This document shows positions 3,388 to 53,473 of a DNA stretch of 55,326 nt, piece after piece. This DNA comes from a virus (lineage: Duplodnaviria; Caudoviricetes): IMG/VR virus record IMGVR_UViG_3300037851_000330, positions 1-55,326 of that record, one strand, 5' to 3'. Below the pieces are notes generated by a model. The model saw nothing but the letters and a program-made list of their open reading frames with translations, was not told the DNA's origin and made no database searches. Every line of letters starts with the position of its first letter. Position 1 is the first letter of the stretch. The position numbers were made by a program, and so were the translations under genes.

Positions 3388-3969
3388 TTACGAGAATTGT
3401 TGTCCTTGGCCACTGAAACCAGCTAAGAAACTATCTTCGTCTACATAGATGGCTCTGAAAGAATATCTCTCTACCGCTGGTGCAGTTTTACCTGCTATGC
3501 TAAAATCAGCTCTAGTTATTCTACAATCTCTTATCCTTGCTACACCATGTAAGTTACCATCAGCCATCTTCTGAAAGACGTCGATGTTAAAAAAGGTAGC
3601 ATTTTCAAAAGTCTCGGGATTTAATGCGTCTTGTGTTCTTCCATCGTTACCAATATTTTTAGAGACTGGATTGTCTGGGCCTAAAGCACCAACGCCGTTC
3701 CCTTTGTCACTAACGCCATTAGGCGTTGCATAACCTAATCCCCTATTGGTTTCTGCAACTCCGGCTACATATCGAATAACTGTGAAAGTTCCTGTTACTT
3801 CATATGAAAGAGGCTCCAATGAAGATGCTTCGTACATACCAAGCACTTTTGGAGCAGCGTGATTAACTTGTACTGAGTAAGAGAGGTCAGTACAGAAGGC
3901 TATAGTCTTATTATTGACCTTAACTTTTGCGTTAGCACCAGTTAAGAAAAAAGGAGCTAGTTTAGCCAT
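3388..3969 (-). CDS. tail tube-like protein (paralog 2)
   Basis: FLTGANAKVKV..LG.YE..S.EP..Y.V.GT..VIRY closely parallels 3983..4522. Confidence 0.7.
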   Translation of the reverse strand: MAKLAPFFLTGANAKVKVNNKTIAFCTDLSYSVQVNHAAPKVLGMYEASSLEPLSYEVTGTFTVIRYVAGVAETNRGLGYATPNGVSDKGNGVGALGPDNPVSKNIGNDGRTQDALNPETFENATFFNIDVFQKMADGNLHGVARIRDCRITRADFSIAGKTAPAVERYSFRAIYVDEDSFLAGFSGQGQQFS

Positions 3970-3982
3970 CTGTACTTCCTAA

Positions 3983-4522
3983 TTATGATAAATCTGTATC
4001 GCCAGAATTTGCAGCTGTGTAGCTGTCGTCGTCTTGCAAGATCGCGTTGAACGCAAACTGTTCTACAAGAACGCCACGCTTATTGATAGCGCCACCTTTA
4101 CGGGTGAAACGGCAATCAGTAAGTCTGATAACTTTTTGTGAATCGATTGAACCTGCGTTGTCGTACTTTTGATAGATGTCAAGATCCCAAGTTTGAGAAG
4201 CTAACAGTTCAGCTGGGTTCATGTGTTGAGAAGCATTTGTTCCTGTTGGGTTGTTGAAGTTCCAGTTACCAACTCCGTTACCAGTAGCTGCTGCACCGTT
4301 CATACCTTGAGCTACAGAAGTGTAACGAATTACACTCAATGTACCATCAACAAAGTATGCAACTGGTTCATTGCTTACTACTTCATAACGACCCATCGTT
4401 TCGATAGGAATTGTTGTCATTGTGACGTTGTAAGAAACGTCTTGAGCGTACGCTAAAGTAAGGTCGCCTGCCTTAATCTTGGCGTTCGCGCCTGTAATAA
4501 ATGAGGGCTTTTTACCTGCCAT
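3983..4522 (-). CDS. tail tube protein
   Basis: 179 aa beta-rich protein immediately downstream of the sheath gene. Confidence 0.75.
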   Translation of the reverse strand: MAGKKPSFITGANAKIKAGDLTLAYAQDVSYNVTMTTIPIETMGRYEVVSNEPVAYFVDGTLSVIRYTSVAQGMNGAAATGNGVGNWNFNNPTGTNASQHMNPAELLASQTWDLDIYQKYDNAGSIDSQKVIRLTDCRFTRKGGAINKRGVLVEQFAFNAILQDDDSYTAANSGDTDLS

Positions 4523-4607
4523 GTCTTATCCTTGCTAGTTCGGTTCTAGCTTACCTTGAATTTATCAGCATAATTGCTGACTTTTATATATTAACATAAT
4601 TATGCTT

Positions 4608-7893: not shown

Positions 7894-8633
7894 TATGTTA
7901 TCTCCTCATACTGTCTTACTATACTTTGCACAACAGTCTGAATGTCATCTTCTAGCTTACGATTTAAGTCAACTAGTACGGCTGCCATGTCTCTTTCTTT
8001 TGCTGGCAATACCCACATCTCAGAAGGATTCTGCTTACTGGATGCCGTTCTAAACTCTTTAGGCCCAGAATCGTTTTCTTTATTCACCATCTGCTCTAGC
8101 TCTTTCTTCCTAGCTATAAAATCTTTAGCAGCTGCAAGGCCAGAAAACATATTTGTTGAACTTAATGGATCAGTACCAGTACTTTTGTTTGATTTTAAAT
8201 TGTCTATAGCGATTTTTTGCGCTTGCTGTTGCTCTCTCTGTGCTTCAAAGATATTTTTAATTTGTTTAGATGAGTTTTTATTTCTCATCGGAATAACTTT
8301 ATATAAACTTCCATCTTTTGCGCGTTTTGGGTTCTTTAACAGGTGAGGGAGCATCTGTTTCTCACCAACCGAGAAATCTACGCGGCCTGACTCAGTTACT
8401 ATCTGGAATACTCCGCCAACTTCAACCGCCTTAATTTGATCAGCAAACTCAGGTACTCCGAGCTCTTGACCAATATTGGCAGCCTCATCTATGGCAGAAG
8501 TTACTAGTTCTGTTATTGCAACCGCTATATCATTAGCAGCTAACTCACACATGTAGTCAGCTTCTCGGTCATTTAAGCCCTTAAATATTAAAGTTTGTCT
8601 TAGTCGGTTGACTTCAAAGCGTGGGTTAATCAT
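7893..8633 (-). CDS. putative virion (neck/tail) protein
   Basis: 246 aa, translationally coupled within the structural operon. Confidence 0.45.
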   Translation of the reverse strand: MINPRFEVNRLRQTLIFKGLNDREADYMCELAANDIAVAITELVTSAIDEAANIGQELGVPEFADQIKAVEVGGVFQIVTESGRVDFSVGEKQMLPHLLKNPKRAKDGSLYKVIPMRNKNSSKQIKNIFEAQREQQQAQKIAIDNLKSNKSTGTDPLSSTNMFSGLAAAKDFIARKKELEQMVNKENDSGPKEFRTASSKQNPSEMWVLPAKERDMAAVLVDLNRKLEDDIQTVVQSIVRQYEEIT

Positions 8634-10161
8634 TCACTCGCGCCTTTTTGATAGCTTTCGCCTTCATGTCTTTCAGAAAATTTTCTTGATCCATACCGTT
8701 CCAATCTTGGCCGAAAATTATTCTGATTTTTCCATTAGGAGAAATTTCTATGCATGGGCGCGATAGATAACAGTAGTCGTTGTCAAGTAAATCTTCATGT
8801 CTTCCTGGATTTTGTGAATACGCTTCTACAGAAACAGGTTTCTTGTTAAGCTCATCAACTTTAGACTGAAGATCTCTTATTTTTTGTTCGATCAGTTCGA
8901 TCTCGTTTCCAACGTCTCCTGTTAATTTGTTGTGCTTACCAGCTACTTCGTGAACGTAATCCTCTAGTTTATCAAACAGAGATAAAATGCGCGCTTCAAC
9001 TTGTTGTAAGTCTACAGCCATACCATTTCTTATTTCTTCACGAATGTTTTCCATTTCTGAATATATATTAGAGATGTTGCTGCGCTTATAGTTTTCTATA
9101 AGCTCGTTGATTCCGCCTTCTATAGCATCATCAGCGAGAGCACCTTCATCTAATATTTGTAGTTCTTTTTCATCTTCAGGTAAATACCATTCAAATACAC
9201 TCATTAATTCTGCAGTTAATGCAGGAAGTGATCTGTTGGCAAATTGATGAACAACTTTATGTCCATCTGATACTCTTCCAGAGTATACATCGTTAACGTG
9301 CTTTCTGATACTTAAAGTATACGTATCGATCTTAACGTCTTTGAAGTCTTCATCGTTCATATCTTTAACGATTTCTCGTAACATTCTGAACGCACCGTTT
9401 CCAATTAAAGAAAGTGCTTGACCATGATCTACTTCATACGTAACTTGATTAGTGCCAGAACGAATAATGTTCTTTTCTAATTGTTCATATGTCATCATGT
9501 CTTTTAAAGAAGTGCTTTTATTTAAACCCTTGCTGTCCATGTAGTTTTTAATAGCATGGCTAGCGTAGTCTCTCATTCTGTCAAAAGGAAGTTCGTGTAG
9601 ATCGAAGAACTTTAGATCGTTCATCTCTCCATTGCTTTTTACCTTACCTTTGAATTCATTAACTACAAAAGACTTAGTCTCATTTCCTGCATGTTTGCCA
9701 GAATAAACTTCTAATGGATTTTTACCAACGATTCCAGCTTCTTCTCTTAGTTCACGAAGTGCGCCTTCATCAAAATCTTCATGTGGTTCTACGTGTCCAC
9801 CTGGAGTAGCCCACATTCCATCATCAGTGCGACGACCCAATAGTATCTTGCCGTCTTTATCTACAACAATGCAACCAGCTCCACGACCTTTATAAAACTC
9901 GTCAAAGCTCTTACGTAAAGAAGCTTTTTTCTTTTTTCTCTCTGTTCTGTCTTGTTGTACTTTTTCTTTAGCCTTAGCGTGATGCTTTTCGCCCCACGTT
10001 CCACCAGTGTTGCTACCAGATTGATCTGGAGCGTCTTTACCTGGACTAGTGTATTTTCCAGCTACAGACTTTGGAGGAGTACCTCTTTCGTGAGATTTTG
10101 CCTTGCCATGTAGTATGGCTTGCATAAATCTCCATTGTCTTTTGCTTACTGCTTTTGGCAT
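8626..10161 (-). CDS. Nudix hydrolase domain protein with C-terminal coiled coil
   Basis: Complete Nudix box GGHVEPHEDFDEGALRELREEAGI. Confidence 0.8.
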   Translation of the reverse strand: MPKAVSKRQWRFMQAILHGKAKSHERGTPPKSVAGKYTSPGKDAPDQSGSNTGGTWGEKHHAKAKEKVQQDRTERKKKKASLRKSFDEFYKGRGAGCIVVDKDGKILLGRRTDDGMWATPGGHVEPHEDFDEGALRELREEAGIVGKNPLEVYSGKHAGNETKSFVVNEFKGKVKSNGEMNDLKFFDLHELPFDRMRDYASHAIKNYMDSKGLNKSTSLKDMMTYEQLEKNIIRSGTNQVTYEVDHGQALSLIGNGAFRMLREIVKDMNDEDFKDVKIDTYTLSIRKHVNDVYSGRVSDGHKVVHQFANRSLPALTAELMSVFEWYLPEDEKELQILDEGALADDAIEGGINELIENYKRSNISNIYSEMENIREEIRNGMAVDLQQVEARILSLFDKLEDYVHEVAGKHNKLTGDVGNEIELIEQKIRDLQSKVDELNKKPVSVEAYSQNPGRHEDLLDNDYCYLSRPCIEISPNGKIRIIFGQDWNGMDQENFLKDMKAKAIKKARVND

Positions 10162-28002: not shown

Positions 28003-28227
28003 ATGAGAACTTATGAAGTTTTAATAAATCATACTGGAGACCCAGACGATTGGGAACCTACAGGTCAGACTCTTACAGAAGAAGAAGCATTAGAACAGAT
28101 GGATGAGCATCCTTTCGGCACTGATCATGATGAAGAGCAAGGCGTTATCTGTTTATTTAATCAGTTTGGGCAAGACTTTATTCAATTGAGGTCAAATGAT
28201 AAACAAGAAGAAATTGTATATCACTAA
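28003..28227 (+). CDS. hypothetical acidic protein
   Basis: GGAG RBS. Confidence 0.6.
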   Translation: MRTYEVLINHTGDPDDWEPTGQTLTEEEALEQMDEHPFGTDHDEEQGVICLFNQFGQDFIQLRSNDKQEEIVYH

Positions 28228-28726
28228 TAGCTCTTTTAGAGAGGTTTCTTTTTCCAAGAAGTGGAAAAGGATAGGCAATGGCGCATACGCGACATACTAC
28301 AAAATATCTCCTAGAAGAGGAATAAAGATATTTGCTTATACTTATAAGCATGTTCATATTGAAGAAGTAATTCCAGCAGCATATCAAGAATTTAAGTTGC
28401 TTAAAGCTGCATGTAAGAGTGGTCATAGTCCAAAACCTTATGAGATAGTTGTTGTAAAAGGTTTAGGGCAAGACCATATTGGTATCGTTATGCAACATAT
28501 TGACGGCAAAAGAGTGTCTGATCTTAAATGGGAAGTTACTTCAGCGTTTCAGAAAAAGATTAGACTTTCTATAGAAGACTTTTTAAGAGATATGATGCGA
28601 ACTTGCAACGTGTATCATGGCGACTTACATACTGGCAACATGATTGCAAAAGTAAAAAAGGGAAAGATTTCAAAGGTTTATGCTGTAGATTTCTCTCCTT
28701 GTAGTAGTGGTTTTATCAACAGATAG
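28196..28726 (+). CDS. minimal protein kinase-like (RIO/ABC1/APH-type) protein
   Basis: IGNGAYA P-loop, GIKIF Lys, HGDLHTGN catalytic loop, VDF. Confidence 0.75.
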   Translation: MINKKKLYITNSSFREVSFSKKWKRIGNGAYATYYKISPRRGIKIFAYTYKHVHIEEVIPAAYQEFKLLKAACKSGHSPKPYEIVVVKGLGQDHIGIVMQHIDGKRVSDLKWEVTSAFQKKIRLSIEDFLRDMMRTCNVYHGDLHTGNMIAKVKKGKISKVYAVDFSPCSSGFINR

Positions 28727-28734
28727 GGTGGTAT

Positions 28735-29346
28735 ATGTTTGATTTTTTAAAAAGGTTTCGTTCTAATAAGAAAAGTGATGCCGTTCAATCTGTTGTTCAG
28801 CCGCGTCGTGCATTTGACCGTGAAGCAAGAATACACCTCAGAGAAAATATATCAATGTTTCTAAGCCAGCAAAATGTGTTGCCTAAATTTAGCGTTGGAA
28901 AAAGAGTTCTCATCAATATCTCCAAAGGTCCTCAAAGGGGGAACTGGACTCTTTTAGCAGACGATTGGAAGGGTAAAGTAGTAACAGGTGAAATAACTCA
29001 GGTTCTTCTTGATACATCATATCTAGAAGAACTTTTAAATGAAAACACTTTCCTTAAATCACCTCAGGGAACTAGAGAGACACTTTTACAACAAGTAGAT
29101 AACAATAATTATCCATACTTATTGCATTACTGTGATTGGAGTTATAAAATTAAGTTCGATGATGAAGATATGCAAGTTAATTGGCCTGTAAATGAGTATT
29201 GGCTTATAGGTGGTTTTGACGATAAAAAGCTTAAAGAATTTAAGCGTTTACAAAAAAGAATTGACGATTTGCAACTTAAGATGCTTGATTGTGAAGCAAC
29301 AAAGAGTACTCTCTTTGACGAAATTTTTAAGAAAGAAGATAAATAA
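28735..29346 (+). CDS. hypothetical protein
   Basis: 203 aa, C-terminal coiled coil. Confidence 0.6.
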   Translation: MFDFLKRFRSNKKSDAVQSVVQPRRAFDREARIHLRENISMFLSQQNVLPKFSVGKRVLINISKGPQRGNWTLLADDWKGKVVTGEITQVLLDTSYLEELLNENTFLKSPQGTRETLLQQVDNNNYPYLLHYCDWSYKIKFDDEDMQVNWPVNEYWLIGGFDDKKLKEFKRLQKRIDDLQLKMLDCEATKSTLFDEIFKKEDK

Positions 29347-29354
29347 GGTATAAT
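29347..29354 (+). promoter_or_regulatory. GGTATAAT promoter (-10) of NAD salvage operon; representative of second promoter class
   Basis: Same or similar octamer on minus strand at 2713, 6902, 10191, 11039, 37233, 40111, 55282 and plus strand at 40145, 40839, 43275, 46457, each upstream of a gene. Confidence 0.7.
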
Positions 29355-29361
29355 TAAAATT

Positions 29362-29388
29362 GTAGACCGGCAGAGAGTTGGTCGAAAC
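29362..29388 (+). promoter_or_regulatory. conserved leader hairpin GTA-GAC-N4-loop-N4-GTC-GAAAC, copy 1
   Basis: Same geometry as 30504..30530 with covarying stem. Confidence 0.65.
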
Positions 29389-29408
29389 AACATATAGAAA
29401 GGTATTCT

Positions 29409-30491
29409 ATGGATTACAATTACTGTGTCATTATTGGGCGCTTTCAGCCACCACATCTATCTCACTTCTCAATGTTTAAGCAAGGTTTAAAAGAGGCAAA
29501 ACACTTAATTGTTGTTTTAGGTTCTGCTAAATCTTCTCCAAACACAAGAAACCCATTCTCTTTTGAGCATCGAGTCCATATGATTAAGCTTGGTATGTCT
29601 CAAGAAGAGATACAGAGAACTACGTTTGTTCCTGCTCGTGACTATCATTACAATGAAGACCATTGGATCACTGAAGTTCAACAAAGAGTTAACTCTATCA
29701 CAAACGGAGATGTCTCTGTTTGCCAAATAGGTTCATATAAAGATTCGTCTTCGTATTATGTTAAACTATTTCCACAGTGGGATTTCATTCCTGCTGTATC
29801 CAACGTATCTCTAAATGCTACAGACCTTAGAACAGAGATGTTCTCGATACCATACAAAAAAACGTGGAGCGACTTCGGTAACCAAGCCTCATTTGAACCT
29901 GATGATATTAAGCAAGTGCAAGACTATCTTAGCCACAATACTTTAAATGGCGTTGTTGCGTTTTTAACGCAGTTTATGTCTTCGCAGCAATATCTTAATC
30001 TAAGAGAAGAATATGATTACATCCAGAAATACAAAGCCGACTGGTCCCACGTACCTTTTCCTGTTACTTTTAATACTGTTGATTCTGTTGTTGTCCAATC
30101 CGGGCACATCCTTTTAGTAAAGAGAAAACACAATCCCGGCAAAGGACTATGGGCACTTCCCGGTGGCTTTCTTAAGAAAGATGAGCGTCTTCAGGCCGGT
30201 GCAATCAGGGAACTAAGAGAAGAAACTGGTATCAAAGTTCATGCTAGTGAGTTACATAAACATGTTGTAGCAGAGAAGACCTTTGATTACCCTAATCGCT
30301 CACTAAGGGGAAGAACTATTACAACTGCTTTTTATGTTAAGCTTCCTCATGGTGAACTGCCTGAGGTTAAAGGCGCAGATGATGCTGAGAAAGCACAATG
30401 GGTTCCTCTAATGGATATAGCTTCTATGGAAGCAGATTTCTTTGAAGACCATTGGCATATAATTCACTATTTTGTAAATGCAGGTCGATAA
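29409..30491 (+). CDS. nadM: bifunctional NMN adenylyltransferase / Nudix hydrolase (NadM-Nudix, NatV-like)
   Basis: IGRFQPPHLSH nucleotidyltransferase motif, NPF, and Nudix box GGFLKKDERLQAGAIRELREETG. Confidence 0.92.
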   Translation: MDYNYCVIIGRFQPPHLSHFSMFKQGLKEAKHLIVVLGSAKSSPNTRNPFSFEHRVHMIKLGMSQEEIQRTTFVPARDYHYNEDHWITEVQQRVNSITNGDVSVCQIGSYKDSSSYYVKLFPQWDFIPAVSNVSLNATDLRTEMFSIPYKKTWSDFGNQASFEPDDIKQVQDYLSHNTLNGVVAFLTQFMSSQQYLNLREEYDYIQKYKADWSHVPFPVTFNTVDSVVVQSGHILLVKRKHNPGKGLWALPGGFLKKDERLQAGAIRELREETGIKVHASELHKHVVAEKTFDYPNRSLRGRTITTAFYVKLPHGELPEVKGADDAEKAQWVPLMDIASMEADFFEDHWHIIHYFVNAGR

Positions 30492-30503
30492 TTTAAACTA
30501 AAC

Positions 30504-30530
30504 GTAGACGGGTAGGTAACTCGTCGAAAC
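30504..30530 (+). promoter_or_regulatory. conserved leader hairpin, copy 2
   Basis: GTAGACGGGT-AGGTA-ACTCGTCGAAAC immediately before the AAAGGAG RBS of nadV. Confidence 0.65.
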
Positions 30531-30544
30531 CAAAGGAGACAAAT

Positions 30545-32050
30545 ATGTCTGAATCGCAAAAGTTTACACACCCGCTTCTCTTCAACAAAGAGGGCGAATT
30601 GACACCATATAAAACTGAAGTAGAGATGCTTAAGGCATTAACTGCTCTATTGTCAGCAGAGAAAACTCTGAATGACATGCAGAATAACCTTCTGTTCAAC
30701 ACAGATAGTTATAAACCATCGCACTGGCTACAGTATCCGCCTAATACTACCTACACTCAATCTTATCTTGAGTCTCGTGGCGGTAAATATGGTCGAACTG
30801 TTATGTTTGGTCTACAGCCTATTCTAACTTTGTTAGAAAAAGGAATAACTAAAGAGAACGTTGAGCAAGCTGCTCAGTTTTACCAACTACATGGTGAACC
30901 TTTCAATAAAGAAGGTTGGATGTATATAGTTGAGAAACACGGTGGAAAACTTCCTCTTAAGATTCGTGCTGTACCTGAAGGCATGGTTGTTCCAACTGGT
31001 AATGTTTTAATGACATGTGAAAACACTGATCCTAACTGTTACTGGTTAACTTCTTACTTCGAAACAATGTTGATGCGCGTATGGTACCCAATCACAGTAG
31101 CCACTCAATCATGGCACTGTAAGCAAATCATCAAACAGTTCCTTGATGAAACTGCAGATGATACAGCAGCAGAGATTCTCTTTAAGTTACATGACTTCGG
31201 TTCTCGCGGTGTTTCATCTCGTGAATCTGCTGCTATCGGTGGTGCTGCCCATTTAGTTAACTTTATGGGTTCAGATACAGTTGACGGCGTTGTGTTTGCT
31301 AATAATCATTACAATTGCGGAATGGCTGGCTTCTCTATTCCTGCTGCAGAACATAGTACAATCACTACTTACGGCCGTGATAAAGAGGTTGATGCTTATC
31401 GTAACATGTTAAAGCAGTTTGCGAAACCTGGAGCGCTTGTTGCTGTAGTGTCTGATTCTTATGATATTTACAACGCAGTAGGTAATATCTGGGGTAAACA
31501 ACTTAAAGATGAGGTTATTGCATCAGGTGCCACCGTTATTATTCGCCCTGACTCCGGTAAACCATCTGAGGTGGTTCTTAAATGTCTACAACTTCTTGAT
31601 GAAAACTTCGGTACAACTTATAATCGCAAAGGATTCAAGGTATTGAACTACGTTCGCGTTATTCAAGGTGACGGCATCAATGAAGATAGTATCCGCGAAA
31701 TCTTACAGGTTGCTAAGAATGCTGGCTATTCTGCATCAAACATCGCGTTTGGTATGGGTGGAGCGTTATTGCAGCAAGTAAACCGCGATACACAGCGCTT
31801 TGCGTATAAATGCTCTTGGGCTAAGATCGATGGTAAAGATGTTGAGGTCTTTAAAGATCCAGTTACTGACCCAGGAAAAACTTCTAAGAAAGGTAAGCTT
31901 GACTTAGTTCGCCGTACAGCTGATGGTAAACTTGTCACTGTGAGTGGAAGTGAACAGTTTGGTTCTATCATGCGAACTGTTTTCCTTAACGGTAAAGTGA
32001 TTACGAAATACACCCTTGATCAAGTGCGCAAACTCGCTGAAGAAGGGTAA
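30545..32050 (+). CDS. nadV: nicotinamide phosphoribosyltransferase
   Basis: TDSYK.SH, LHDFG.RG, IPAAEHS, VSDSYD, IRPDSG, IQGDG, FGMGG.LLQ motifs. Confidence 0.95.
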   Translation: MSESQKFTHPLLFNKEGELTPYKTEVEMLKALTALLSAEKTLNDMQNNLLFNTDSYKPSHWLQYPPNTTYTQSYLESRGGKYGRTVMFGLQPILTLLEKGITKENVEQAAQFYQLHGEPFNKEGWMYIVEKHGGKLPLKIRAVPEGMVVPTGNVLMTCENTDPNCYWLTSYFETMLMRVWYPITVATQSWHCKQIIKQFLDETADDTAAEILFKLHDFGSRGVSSRESAAIGGAAHLVNFMGSDTVDGVVFANNHYNCGMAGFSIPAAEHSTITTYGRDKEVDAYRNMLKQFAKPGALVAVVSDSYDIYNAVGNIWGKQLKDEVIASGATVIIRPDSGKPSEVVLKCLQLLDENFGTTYNRKGFKVLNYVRVIQGDGINEDSIREILQVAKNAGYSASNIAFGMGGALLQQVNRDTQRFAYKCSWAKIDGKDVEVFKDPVTDPGKTSKKGKLDLVRRTADGKLVTVSGSEQFGSIMRTVFLNGKVITKYTLDQVRKLAEEG

Positions 32051-32802: not shown

Positions 32803-33147
32803 ATGAAAAGATTATTATTGTCCATAGTCATTTTCTTAATTAGCAGACAATCGTTTGCTAAAGATCCTTATTCCACTTTATTAGATGCTTGTCTGAAAGA
32901 TTCTAGAGTGGAATTCTGCAATAATATGAACAACATGAAAGACACTACACAAAAAGCAGCAGAGAGATATCTGTTAAGTGTAGGCTTATATAATGCAAGT
33001 GTGTTTGTTGGTTCATTTATACAGGCATCTCTAAACCAAAGAGTAGAAATACGTGACAATTCAAGAATATCCTATCTTGGCAATCAAAGAGCATTGATAT
33101 TAAGGCCAGATCAAGTGCTTATAGTTATAACTTGGCCAATAGATTAG
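32803..33147 (+). CDS. exported hypothetical protein
   Basis: Signal peptide MKRLLLSIVIFLISRQSFA. Confidence 0.6.
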   Translation: MKRLLLSIVIFLISRQSFAKDPYSTLLDACLKDSRVEFCNNMNNMKDTTQKAAERYLLSVGLYNASVFVGSFIQASLNQRVEIRDNSRISYLGNQRALILRPDQVLIVITWPID

Positions 33148-33155
33148 AGGAAGCA

Positions 33156-33968
33156 ATGAGAAAAATCATATTTTTATTACTGTTGTTGCTATCTTCTCAA
33201 GCTGAAGGTAAGAAGATAATTGTTGCAGTTATAGATACTGGCTTCGATATGACTAGTGAATGGTCAAATGCATCCGCTAACGGCTTAACTAAGCCAAAGG
33301 TTTGCAAGATGGGGCATTATGATTTTGAGAACAAGACACCAAAGATAAAAGATATAAATGGCCACGGTACTCATATCGCGGGTTTAATAGCTCAAAACAA
33401 CGAGAACACTGATTATTGTATGGTTTTTTATAACTACTATGGATCTGGTGACACTTTAGAAGCTAGCTTAAAGGCATATAGACGCGCAATAGATATAAGA
33501 GTAGATATAATAAACTATTCTGGTGGTGGCGAAGAGTATTCTGCTAGAGAATGCGCTTTAATGAAAGAAGCTCTTGATGCTGGAATAGTGGTAGTTGCTG
33601 CCGCTGGTAATGAAGGCAAGAACCTCGATGAAAACCCATACTATCCAGCGCTATGTGATCCACGTATCATAGTCGTAGCCAACACATATCCCGATGGTTC
33701 ACTTGCACCAAGTTCTAACTATAGCTTAAAGGATCATAAAGTACAGAAAGTACATGGTACTAATGTAATGAGCCTAGGTCTTAAAGATACATACTCTATT
33801 ATGACTGGTACTTCACAATCTACAGCTAAGATGACGTCTAAAATCTTGAACGAGATGAGTAAAATAGATTATGAGACGCAAAAGGTTTGTACGTTTAATT
33901 ACGTCGGCATAATGAAATGTACAAAAACAACGAAAAAAGTAAAATTTAATGCCGATAAGTATAGGTAA
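33156..33968 (+). CDS. secreted subtilisin-like (S8) serine protease
   Basis: Signal peptide; VAVIDTG, HGTHIAG, AAGN, GTSQS catalytic motifs. Confidence 0.9.
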   Translation: MRKIIFLLLLLLSSQAEGKKIIVAVIDTGFDMTSEWSNASANGLTKPKVCKMGHYDFENKTPKIKDINGHGTHIAGLIAQNNENTDYCMVFYNYYGSGDTLEASLKAYRRAIDIRVDIINYSGGGEEYSARECALMKEALDAGIVVVAAAGNEGKNLDENPYYPALCDPRIIVVANTYPDGSLAPSSNYSLKDHKVQKVHGTNVMSLGLKDTYSIMTGTSQSTAKMTSKILNEMSKIDYETQKVCTFNYVGIMKCTKTTKKVKFNADKYR

Positions 33969-35967: not shown

Positions 35968-35970
35968 ATT

Positions 35971-36179
35971 GACTGCGGACGTTAATCGTGCACTTTCTAT
36001 CTAAGAATTAGGTAGATGGTGTGGGAGCTGCTTGCAACGCCTTTATGGCGCTCTGGATAAAGTGTGTAACGGTCGAAACAGTCTTAGGTAGATCGTAGGA
36101 AGCGATTCAAGAATACTTTCTATCTATAAGATGACGGTGAATCGTGGCTCTACAGCTCTGTGCACGAGGGCTGTAGAGC
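35971..36179 (+). ncRNA. candidate structured non-coding RNA (~210 nt)
   Basis: ORF-free intergenic; nested stems GACTG/CAGTC, CGTTA/TAACG, TGCACTTT/AAAGTGTG, TCTATCTA/TAGGTAGA (twice), and 13-bp terminal hairpin 36147-36179. Confidence 0.6.
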
Positions 36180-36210
36180 TTATTCCTAATTATAAATTAT
36201 AAGGAGCAAC

Positions 36211-52149: not shown

Positions 52150-52226
52150 TGTGGGATAGCAATCAGGGTGACTGCACTTGACTGTTAATCAAGACTAGGC
52201 TGGTTCGATCCCAGCTCCCACAGCCA
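52150..52226 (+). tRNA. tRNA-Asn(GTT)
   Basis: Acceptor TGTGGGA/TCCCACA, loop CTGTTAA, GGTTCGATCC, G73-CCA. Confidence 0.9.
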
Positions 52227-52227
52227 T

Positions 52228-52303
52228 GCAACTTTTGTAGATAGGGTTATTACACCGGTTTGAAGCACCGAGGAACTCAGTTCGACTCTGAGAGGTTGCA
52301 CCA
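52228..52303 (+). tRNA. tRNA-Phe(GAA)
   Basis: Acceptor GCAACTT/AGGTTGC, loop TTGAAGC, GTTCGACTC, A73-CCA. Confidence 0.85.
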
Positions 52304-52340: not shown

Positions 52341-52699
52341 ATAAGTTGGATAGCGAAGCTACTGCTGAGTAAATCAGAGGAACTTCGGGACTCCACAAGC
52401 AGCATAGCAGGTAATTACTGTCCACCGTAAGGTGAGCGACGGCTACAGAGACGAGTCATCAACATGGTACCGGTTCATATCTAGTATGAAAGTTTGCGAA
52501 AGCTTACACTTTGAACGGTTCCAAACTGGGCGTTATGTTGATGAGTGAAACGAGCGACAGCGTATGCGGAGCAACCTCAAATAGGAGCACAATGACTAGC
52601 TTGAGTCGTGTTCGGGTTGAGGGCTTGAGAATAAACGCGAGTTTATTCCTAGACGGATAGTAGCATAAACAGAATCCCGGGTAACGCTATCCAACTTAT
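52341..52699 (+). ncRNA. rnpB: RNase P RNA (bacterial type A-like)
   Basis: 15-bp terminal helix ATAAGTTGGATAGCG/CGCTATCCAACTTAT; 5' GAGGAACTTCGGGACTCCA and 3' ACAGAATCCCGGGTAA form P4 with bulged U; AGTGAAACG, GAGCAA and CCTAGA conserved-region-like motifs. Confidence 0.88.
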
Positions 52700-52724: not shown

Positions 52725-52801
52725 GCTCTCGTCGCCTAATGTATATGGCACTTCGCTACGAACGAAGAATAATGTTGGTTAAATTCCAGCCGAGAGTACC
52801 A
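52725..52801 (+). tRNA. tRNA-Arg(ACG)
   Basis: Acceptor GCTCTCG/CGAGAGT, stem CTTCG-CTACGAA-CGAAG, atypical T loop TTAAATT, CCA. Confidence 0.85.
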
Positions 52802-53396: not shown

Positions 53397-53473
53397 ACTC
53401 CTGTAGCCCAACGGCAGAGGCAGTCGGCTTAAAATCGACAAAGTGATGGGTTCGAATCCCTCCAGGAGTACCA
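53397..53473 (+). tRNA. tRNA-Leu(TAA) with short variable loop
   Basis: Acceptor ACTCCTG/CAGGAGT, GTCGG-CTTAAAA-TCGAC, GGTTCGAATCC, CCA. Confidence 0.85.

Follow-up and report, generated by a model that had tools for sequence, protein, structure and literature searches.

Elements of several kinds are known to act in front of genes for nicotinamide adenine dinucleotide (NAD) metabolism or close to the ribosome-binding site (RBS). The NAD+-I (nadA motif) and NAD+-II (pnuC motif) riboswitches are cis-acting leader RNAs on NAD-metabolism genes. Protein-read operators, such as those of the MS2 and PP7 coat proteins, the autogenous repressors of phage T4 and Escherichia coli thrS, are small hairpins near the RBS, and the guanidine-II (mini-ykkC) leader consists of two tiny hairpins, separated by a few nucleotides, whose loops are conserved and the second of which overlaps the Shine-Dalgarno sequence. 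At the DNA level, NrtR sites are sequence-conserved 21-bp palindromes with the core GT-N7-AC, and NrtR regulates nadM-nadV in Synechocystis, according to the available part of the NrtR paper (PMC2330246). The PeSL cassettes of T4-type phages, as described in the portion of PMC2839356 at hand, line up an early promoter, a stem-loop, a Shine-Dalgarno sequence and a start codon; their stem-loops vary in place round the promoter, are typically GGGG...CCCC terminators and accompany ORFans. Here we analyse a hairpin, H1, that stands in two copies before the NAD-salvage genes nadM-Nudix and nadV of a 55,326-nt virus record from IMG/VR (the window, meaning the whole stretch of DNA analysed).

We hold with high confidence that H1 is a real, gene-specific cis-acting RNA. 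Judged by their sequence, the two copies appear to be a local form of a widespread nadM-Nudix/nadV leader RNA that is not in Rfam; this leader is a new, uncatalogued RNA family, to which the window adds a distinct sub-lineage form. Like NAD+-I and NAD+-II, H1 is a cis-acting leader RNA on NAD-metabolism genes, but it is far smaller (~19-27 nt with ~3 conserved unpaired bases) and precedes nadM and nadV instead. An earlier reading of the window from its letters only (the sequence-only reading) had held that the motif matches neither riboswitch. For NAD+-I this stands, the nadA model (RF03013; gathering score 37.5 bits) giving no match at E<=10 in the whole record; for NAD+-II it stands in so far as no Rfam 15 family matched the leaders, the pnuC model, which we take to be in that library, not having been checked by name. 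At the gathering score, Rfam gave no leader match in the window or in 15 phage and bacterial loci, and at E<=10 it gave none in the two window leaders or in a Luteimonas leader (L265). Targeted literature searches, supplementary files not covered, found no description of a nadM/nadV leader RNA among the results listed; the words phage, hairpin, riboswitch and Xanthomonad are absent from the NrtR paper as far as its text is available (PMC2330246), and hairpin, untranslated region (UTR) and riboswitch occur 0 times in the accessible text of the preprint on the phage NAD+-rebuilding pathway NARP2 (10.1101/2024.02.11.579819).

Two hairpin copies at the nadM-Nudix and nadV starts

The window, estimated to be ~33% complete, comes from a tailed phage with genes for a tail sheath, virion proteins, ribonucleotide reductase and DNA ligase, and its DNA was found in freshwater metagenome runs, with no RNA run listed among them. 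On the plus strand, a promoter-like site TTAAGA-16-TATAAT (29327-29354; 10/12 matches in a consensus scan) predicts a transcript start at ~29361. Its TATAAT ends (29354) 7 nt upstream of H1 copy 1, which reads GTA-GACCGGC-AGAGA-GTTGGTC-GAAAC (29362-29388, plus strand) and consists of a 7-bp stem (29365-29371 with 29377-29383) and the loop AGAGA (29372-29376). From the end of copy 1 it is 20 nt, and from the end of its stem 25 nt, to the start of nadM-Nudix (29409-30491, plus strand), called nadM below, which encodes 360 amino acids with nicotinamide mononucleotide (NMN) adenylyltransferase and ADP-ribose (ADPR) pyrophosphatase domains (Pfam CTP_transf_like, 9.9e-11; NUDIX, 1.3e-22). H1 copy 2, GTA-GACGGGT-AGGTA-ACTCGTC-GAAAC (30504-30530, plus strand), has a 7-bp stem (30507-30513 with 30519-30525) and the loop AGGUA (30514-30518). 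Its stem ends 19 nt upstream of nadV (30545-32050, plus strand), which encodes a 501-amino-acid nicotinamide phosphoribosyltransferase (Pfam NAMPT_N, 1.4e-30; NAPRTase, 2.2e-63), and the AAGGAG of the nadV RBS (30533-30538) begins 2 nt past the end of copy 2.

Folded alone, each copy forms the 7-bp stem with a 5-nt loop, at -9.5 kcal/mol (z -3.65) for copy 1 and -9.0 kcal/mol (z -3.04) for copy 2. Four of the seven stem pairs differ between the copies with pairing kept in all, two G-U pairs occurring in copy 1 and one in copy 2. The pattern GTAGAC-N13-GTCGAAAC, with up to two mismatches allowed, is found in the 55,326-nt record only at copies 1 and 2, while the shuffled record held it 0.19 times on average and reached two occurrences in 1/100 shuffles. 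The sequence-only reading had given both copies these letters and positions before nadM-Nudix and nadV, and had claimed equal spacing, a 7-bp stem with compensatory changes and G-U pairs, a distance of about 7 nt from TATAAT to copy 1 and the closeness of copy 2 to the RBS; reading and folding both copies, together with the Pfam matches, bore it out on all of these points, the TATAAT being part of the promoter-like site.

Gene specificity and covariation of H1

To place the two copies among their relatives, two IMG/VR locus sets were used, one of 67 loci centred on nadM and one of the best 80 of 212 confirmed nadV loci, and H1 was seen in most collected leaders of both, by eye and by script. 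Open reading frames (ORFs) of at least 60 amino acids were called in the window and in loci L003-L006 and L100-L246 as a non-overlapping set, with NadM and NadV labelled by blastp, leaving out ORFs <100 nt from a locus edge, duplicates with identical -90..+30 and NAD ORFs that began >60 residues away from the N-terminus of the query. For each gene, the best hairpin with a 5-nt loop in -85..-8 was then chosen blind to the loop sequence. An RNNGA loop sat on the best hairpin of 49/96 nadM and 48/89 nadV genes, compared with 23/1015 other ORFs of the same loci, and a strong hairpin was present before 64/96 nadM and 59/89 nadV genes versus 212/1015 other ORFs. Among the strong hairpins, the commonest loops were AGAGA (17) and AUAGA (16) for nadM and AUAGA (14), AGAGA (8), AGUGA (8) and GGAGA (5) for nadV, with no control loop above 3 of 212. 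The position is fixed as well, the 3' end of the hairpin lying 18-32 nt before the start in 43/49 nadM cases and 19-32 nt before it in 44/48 nadV cases.

The same tie to the two genes emerged on a larger scale. In five phage contigs (346 kb, both strands), hairpins of this kind with stems of at least 7 bp, lying 19-28 nt before a clear gene start, all belonged to nadM or nadV, and no further regulon members were found there. In two complete Xanthomonadales genomes, the full GG-AYAGA-CC hairpin with its leader occurred only at nadM and nadV; scanning them for GGAYAGACC gave three extra hairpin-like sites, all inside long open frames and with no RBS or ATG. The sequence-only reading had named absence from homologous leaders, or equal frequency before unrelated genes, as what would speak against the motif; put to this comparison, H1 proved NAD-gene-specific and covarying.

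Some hairpins were seen at neighbours of the two genes. The one other NAD gene in the five phage contigs is a nadA (quinolinate synthase; PF02445, E 1.6e-85), which adjoins nadM and nadV in L243 (G002:C1:43320-44198, minus strand). An AUAGA hairpin of 4 bp stands 28 nt upstream of this gene, a distance and form within the background rate; this nadA may be a third regulon member or a chance case. Hairpins with AGAGA or AGUGA loops also precede ORFs of 108-254 amino acids that lack a Pfam match and stand just upstream of nadM (L112:1608-2436, L112:1157-1561 and L125:1663-2429); these ORFs may be insertions that captured the leader.

We next asked on which strand and at which level the structure is kept. 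When sites were re-picked by Watson-Crick pairs only (at least 4 of 6; 58/96 nadM, 59/89 nadV and 94/1015 control genes), the residual non-Watson-Crick cells were G-U in 39 and A-C in 6 cases in the NAD leaders, versus 31 and 27 in the controls. Given that a DNA palindrome would treat G-T and A-C alike, this asymmetry indicates a constraint on the sense-strand RNA. Covariation was counted in loop-anchored gapless alignments of the two loop classes described below (class 1, n=61; class 2, n=40), which were aligned separately because a pooled MAFFT alignment of the 101 copies slid the AUAGA class by 4 columns. All seven pairs vary on both sides in both classes. Cells were paired in 92.0% of class 1 against ~50% after shuffling, with a covariation score of 1.08 versus 0.23, and in 94.3% of class 2 against ~52%, with 1.11 versus 0.25, the percentages being inflated by the preselection of the aligned copies as hairpins; 0/500 shuffles scored as high in either class, and the signal collapsed once the partner column was slid. 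The unbiased figures are the loop-blind specificity counts and the Watson-Crick-only G-U and A-C counts. Specificity, covariation and the sense-strand G-U bias together support the claim of the sequence-only reading that a cis-acting RNA specific to both NAD-salvage genes is present.

A covariance model, R1, built from 40 phage class-2 copies, was tested on 80 unseen bacterial nadV loci (492 kb, both strands), bearing in mind that the E-values of such short models are rough. At E<=1 it matched 37 sites, every one of them on the sense strand. The start of NadV follows 35 of these at a distance of 22-25 nt and that of NadM the other 2 at 18-19 nt, and the rest of the 492 kb held no match. On three whole bacterial genomes R1 returned nothing at E<=10, known leaders included, the model being too small for 5-Mb searches.

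These results bear directly on the idea that the inverted repeat works as DNA and binds a dimeric regulator such as host NrtR. The repeat does stand beside a promoter-like site before NAD genes, as an NrtR operator stands before nadM-nadV and other NAD genes, and NrtR is a regulator of exactly this gene pair in Synechocystis (PMC2330246, in its available text). However, the arms of H1 have no conserved sequence and covary, G-T is tolerated and its mirror image A-C is not, every R1 match is on the sense strand, the landmark is the start codon and not the promoter, many copies are operon-internal, and the two window copies share no GT-N7-AC. The strand asymmetry contradicts this alternative, which the sequence-only reading had left open; we consider a DNA operator highly improbable and largely refuted.

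A generic phage intergenic stem-loop, for example of PeSL type, or a chance repeat fares no better. Copy 1 does have the PeSL layout, with promoter, stem-loop, Shine-Dalgarno sequence and start in one short intergenic cassette (PMC2839356, in the part at hand). In that part of the source, however, PeSL stem-loops show neither gene specificity nor loop conservation and serve in termination or recombination, whereas H1 is specific to one gene family, keeps its loop and its distance to the start, occurs in promoterless operon-internal copies and follows the genes into bacterial chromosomes. We regard this explanation as scarcely credible.

Other candidates drawn from known RNA elements were also rejected. 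The letters of H1 do not fit a hammerhead core, and the one hint of a CRISPR repeat (Rfam CRISPR-DR22, 14.7 bits, E 7.3) is at chance level. Set against the respective consensus, the GGA of a CsrA site is mostly missing from H1 loops, the CAGUGN loop of an iron-responsive element is at odds with the C-G closing pair that covariation supports outside a 5-nt loop, and no uniform complement would allow the loop to pair with the 16S 3' end.

Lineages of H1 and the second hairpin at the start codon

Across the collected leaders, H1 takes the form of a 5-9 bp stem of free sequence capped by a pentaloop with the consensus A-N-N-G-A. Loops of class 1 are closed by a C-G pair (AGAGA, AGUGA, AGCGA, AGGGA, GGAGA) and those of class 2 by a G-C pair (AUAGA or ACAGA). 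The sequence-only reading had proposed an AGnnA loop, which fits both window copies but not the family, whose consensus is A-N-N-G-A; the AGAGA of copy 1 agrees with this consensus, and the AGGUA of copy 2 has a U at position 4, as in L183 and L116. Structure and loop are kept although the proteins have diverged to 30-45% identity. The loop varies in identity from lineage to lineage (AGAGA, AUAGA, AGGUA and six-letter loops), and within one genome both leaders usually belong to a single loop class even though their stems are unrelated (32 loci).

The closest relative by NadM (59% identity; L006, the same as L146/L168) carries the motif before both genes with different stems, GTA-GGCCGAC-AGAGA-GTTGGCT-GAAAAC and GTA-GGTAGGC-AGAGA-GCTTACT-GAAAAC, and in L006/L146 TGGTATAAT lies 6 nt upstream of GTAG. 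In three further loci (L101, L104 and L149), an AGAGA hairpin is preceded, ~60-90 nt before nadM, by a second inverted repeat, (G)TA-GGAC...GTCT-GA, whose ends resemble the GTAGAC...GTCGAAAC of the window; GATATAT(A), which may be a phage-specific promoter, recurs inside this repeat.

In bacteria, the hairpin is found in 47/79 non-redundant nadV leaders (from the 80 best genome matches), nearly all of Xanthomonadales/Lysobacterales, and in 64/80 bacterial loci nadM-Nudix stands upstream of nadV with its own promoter, H1 and RBS hairpin. H1 before nadV tracks the presence of nadM-Nudix in the locus, both in phages (39/63 with versus 2/13 without, p 0.004) and in bacteria (56/64 with versus 0/16 without), the counts being not independent in either set. 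It is also present in one Anaerolineae genome and in two cyanobacterial genomes, both of which have GGAGA in the nadM copy and AUAGA in the nadV copy, so that both loop classes can serve one cell; of 201 evenly sampled cyanobacterial genomes, 10 had NadV, and H1 occurred in 2 of these 10. Cultured phages show the whole range. Roseophage DSS3_MAL1 has H1 and the second hairpin, H2 (described below), before both genes; in Synechococcus phage BUCT-ZZ01, nadM is preceded by both hairpins (AAAGA loop in H1) and nadV by an imperfect H1; RaK2 and CBB have a variant with six- to eight-letter loops containing GUA(G); KVP40, Mendera, phiM12, RB43 and AS-gz have the RBS hairpin only; and CcrBL10 has neither H1 nor H2. 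In Klebsiella phage RaK2 (L346), an annotated HNH endonuclease gene (3566-4591) lies between nadM and nadV, and nadV is preceded by an 8-bp ACAGA-loop hairpin and then by a GUAGUA-loop hairpin.

Within this family, the window copies are set apart by what surrounds the helix. A UA directly before (with any letter preceding it) and GAA directly after the helix occur in 13/101 collected H1 copies, and four further copies with other loops have the same flanks (L167 and L210 before nadV; L169 twice). Eleven of the 13 have a G-initial helix of exactly 7 bp. The letter before UA varies (G/A/C/U), as does the fifth letter after the helix (C/A/G/U), while the flanks retain UA 5' and GAA(A) 3' of the helix. 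The sequence-only reading had taken the flanks as invariant and as forming a GU-A/GAA-AC internal loop; the flanks are a trait of this sub-lineage only, and the closure of such a loop by G-C and U-A is not conserved in the relatives. From these alignments, the window copies would represent a local sub-lineage form with UA...GAAA flanks, a fixed 7-bp stem and loops that may end in GUA or UUA. A reader in contact with both the loop and the flanks would be consistent with the constant stem length between them. The loop E/sarcin-ricin bulged-G module (AGUA/GAA) is a recurrent protein-binding module, and the helix base of the sub-lineage, with (G)UA at its 5' and GAA at its 3' flank, has the letters of this module but, unlike it, no conserved closing helix beyond.

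A second model, R2, was built from 59 class-1 copies with the window excluded. It ranked copy 1 first of 18 matches on the window (22.9 bits, E 0.0067) and copy 2 ninth of 18 (14.0 bits, E 0.97), which is background level, and the class-2 model R1 detected neither window copy. Copy 1 thus appears, by its letters, to be a clear family member, and copy 2, with its AGGUA loop and closing U-A, a probable divergent member, recognised by its likeness to copy 1 and its position.

Two further cases resemble the window form. In L169, the nadM and nadV leaders (~1850 and ~2960) are near-identical over ~45 nt (GTA-GGATTCC-ATGTA-GGAGTCT-GAAATATTTTTAAGGAGGT), which looks like a recent copy-over between leaders. 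Scanning IMG/VR for the exact GTAGAC-N13-GTCGAAAC gave 93 stretches, of which 0/93 add 4 further pairs (most 3), and these were set aside as chance matches. Among IMG/VR loci, L029 and L038 match the pattern exactly, form a 6-bp stem and continue straight into AAGGAG and ATG.

H1 is usually followed by a second hairpin, H2, at the RBS. In the window, H2 copy 1 (UAUAGAA-AGGUA-UUCUAUG, 29393-29411, plus strand; hairpin scan and minimum free energy (MFE) fold) has the Shine-Dalgarno AAGG within and beside its loop and the AUG (29409-29411) in its 3' arm, confirming the start-codon hairpin (ATAGAA/TTCTAT) that had been noted after copy 1. The nadV RBS (30533-30550, plus strand) combines the AAGGAG with a weak hairpin, AGACA-AAUA-UGUCU (30537-30550), that includes the AUG (30545-30547); the MFE fold of this leader (30498-30560) reaches z only -1.89, and the nadV AUG of the relative L146 is enclosed by a similar hairpin. 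A hairpin holding the Shine-Dalgarno sequence and/or the start codon is present at both window genes, if only weak for nadV. Across genes, the -24..+8 region folds more stably in nadM (median -4.8 kcal/mol, 72% <= -4) than in 623 control genes at equal G+C (median -2.3 kcal/mol, 27% <= -4), and in nadV it does not (median -2.8 kcal/mol). A long-range pairing of the 5' flank UUGUAG with nadM codons 2-4, seen in MFE folds of the window and L146, is impossible in nadV leaders or L210 and was treated as incidental.

Other features of the window lie apart from the two leaders. An ORF-free gap of 243 nt (35968-36210, plus strand), a candidate small RNA gene, holds direct repeats (ACTTTCTATCTA..., TTAGGTAGAT), a strong terminal hairpin, a GTA-GATCGT-AGGAA-GCGATT hairpin and a 9-mer, GGTCGAAAC, common with copy 1; it folds at -69.4 kcal/mol (z -3.25) and has no Rfam match. 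A full-length bacterial class A RNase P RNA (52346-52698, plus strand; 141.8 bits, gathering score 100, model positions 1-367) lies among tRNAs at 52150-52223, 52228-52300, 52725-52798 and 53397-53470. Such a gene on a phage seems unusual, and a literature search returned nothing on a phage-borne copy. A 511-amino-acid ORF among virion genes (8626-10161, minus strand) has a second Nudix domain (PHROG MutT/NUDIX, 3.2e-21), the ORF two genes upstream of nadM (28196-28726, plus strand) has weak kinase-like matches (RIO1, 5.5e-05; ABC1, 3e-04), and a subtilase (33132-33968, plus strand; Peptidase_S8, 2.3e-29) lies ~1.1 kb downstream of nadV.

A reader for the leader and control of NAD+ rebuilding

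A loop with ~3 conserved letters on a helix, held at a fixed distance from the start beside H2, has the anatomy of a translational operator. Protein-read operators likewise combine a sequence-specific loop with a free stem at or just upstream of the RBS, and one of them may serve several cistrons; unlike the operator of one phage's repressor, H1 is spread over unrelated phages and bacterial chromosomes. We propose that H1 would act as a translational operator ~20-30 nt before the start codon, usually followed by H2. A trans-acting reader would recognise the loop and, in the lineage of the window, perhaps also the UA/GAA helix base, which a 7-bp stem separates from the loop. Bound in the upstream part of the 30S footprint beside H2, the reader would control the frequency of ribosome initiation on both genes, thereby tying the output of a costly NAD-rebuilding pathway to one signal. 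Whether H1 is an operator read by a trans factor we judge to be about evenly balanced. Translational regulation, a protein reader and its identity are what we infer from this anatomy and from the comparisons that follow. The reader would most plausibly be a protein, with a NAD-pathway protein such as NadM-Nudix as the leading candidate. A protein is favoured over a ligand pocket by the loop class shared within a genome, by the drift of the loop and by the fact that H1 and H2 have no strand in common; NadM-Nudix is suggested by the co-occurrence of H1 with nadM-Nudix and by the way the element follows the cassette across hosts.

The alternative that H1, with or without H2, is a riboswitch that binds NAD+, NMN, ADPR, nicotinamide or phosphoribosyl pyrophosphate (PRPP) directly and changes access to the RBS draws on the strict tie to NAD genes in phages of many hosts, Xanthomonadales, cyanobacteria and one Anaerolineae genome, lineages that share no obvious dedicated protein besides the NAD enzymes. 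Its layout of two small hairpins, the second on the Shine-Dalgarno sequence, recalls guanidine-II, and in class 1 the loops of both H1 and H2 are RGAGA. Unlike in guanidine-II, however, the two pentaloops are of other sequence, differ from one another in class 2 and cannot pair mutually, purine-only loops being unable to kiss by Watson-Crick pairs. The ~3 conserved loop positions drift, with AGGUA, AGUUA, AUGUA and six-letter loops in the window lineage and in RaK2/CBB, and the loop class follows the genome instead of being universal. In addition, no alternative pairing that could pass a signal between H1 and H2 was seen, and no Rfam riboswitch matches. Taking these observations together, we find a riboswitch quite unlikely.

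H1 could also be a reader-free structural element inherited with the cassette, such as a stabiliser against RNases, a processing mark or a device for fixed translation efficiency or ribosome standby. Copy 1 stands at the predicted transcript 5' end, as in L006 and several other phages, copy 2 lies between two cistrons, many relatives dispense with H1, and the comparison of NadM and NadV residues has revealed no reader. By contrast, neither loop conservation nor a constant spacing to the start is required of a passive hairpin, such hairpins are rare before the other genes of these genomes (the 23/1015 above, and none in the 346 kb of contigs), and structure and loop have outlasted the divergence of the proteins. 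We consider this explanation unlikely, if with some weight.

Several points count against the operator proposed here, or against the evidence behind it. H1 is absent from ~40-50% of homologous leaders and hence dispensable, and it is missing in 6/10 cultured phages, including KVP40, the phage in which NARP2 was tested. No column or length of NadM or NadV separates H1-bearing from H1-free genomes (largest frequency difference 0.33). Because H1 occurs in phages that infect many hosts and in three or more bacterial phyla, one dedicated host protein is an unlikely reader, and a ligand or the ribosome could take its place. Finally, many of the copies are related, so that the counts are not independent, the bacterial set comes mostly from one order, the aligned copies were preselected, and copy 2 scores at background level with R2.

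As a form of the operator reading, we tentatively consider, and on balance regard as unlikely, an undescribed feedback loop in which an enzyme of the cassette, with NadM-Nudix as the candidate, binds the ANNGA loop of both mRNAs and releases it upon a change in substrate or product, or in which the RNA itself binds a NAD-breakdown product. The candidate is suggested by its Nudix fold, the fold that NrtR regulators use to sense ADP-ribose. If this is true, phages and Xanthomonadales would switch on NAD+ rebuilding only during the destruction of NAD+, for instance by defences of the Thoeris, DSR or SIR2 type, and an RNA-level sensor would lie inside a counter-defence pathway. In the lineage of the window, the reader would then have a further contact in the loop-E-like UA/GAA module, which stands exactly a 7-bp stem away from the loop.

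Together, nadV and nadM-Nudix make up NARP2, the pathway by which phages rebuild NAD+ against NAD-depleting defences. According to the available text of the NARP2 preprint, the pathway overproduces NAD+ and consumes PRPP, and the KVP40 operon is toxic to clone in E. coli (10.1101/2024.02.11.579819), which makes a need for control plausible. The leader RNA, which many phages have in common with the nadM-nadV operon on Xanthomonadales chromosomes, offers a handle on this control and is a candidate for a new Rfam family; in practice, H1 can also serve as a marker for the true start codons of nadM and nadV. It would belong either to a new pair of RNA operator and protein or to a new riboswitch class of very small size.

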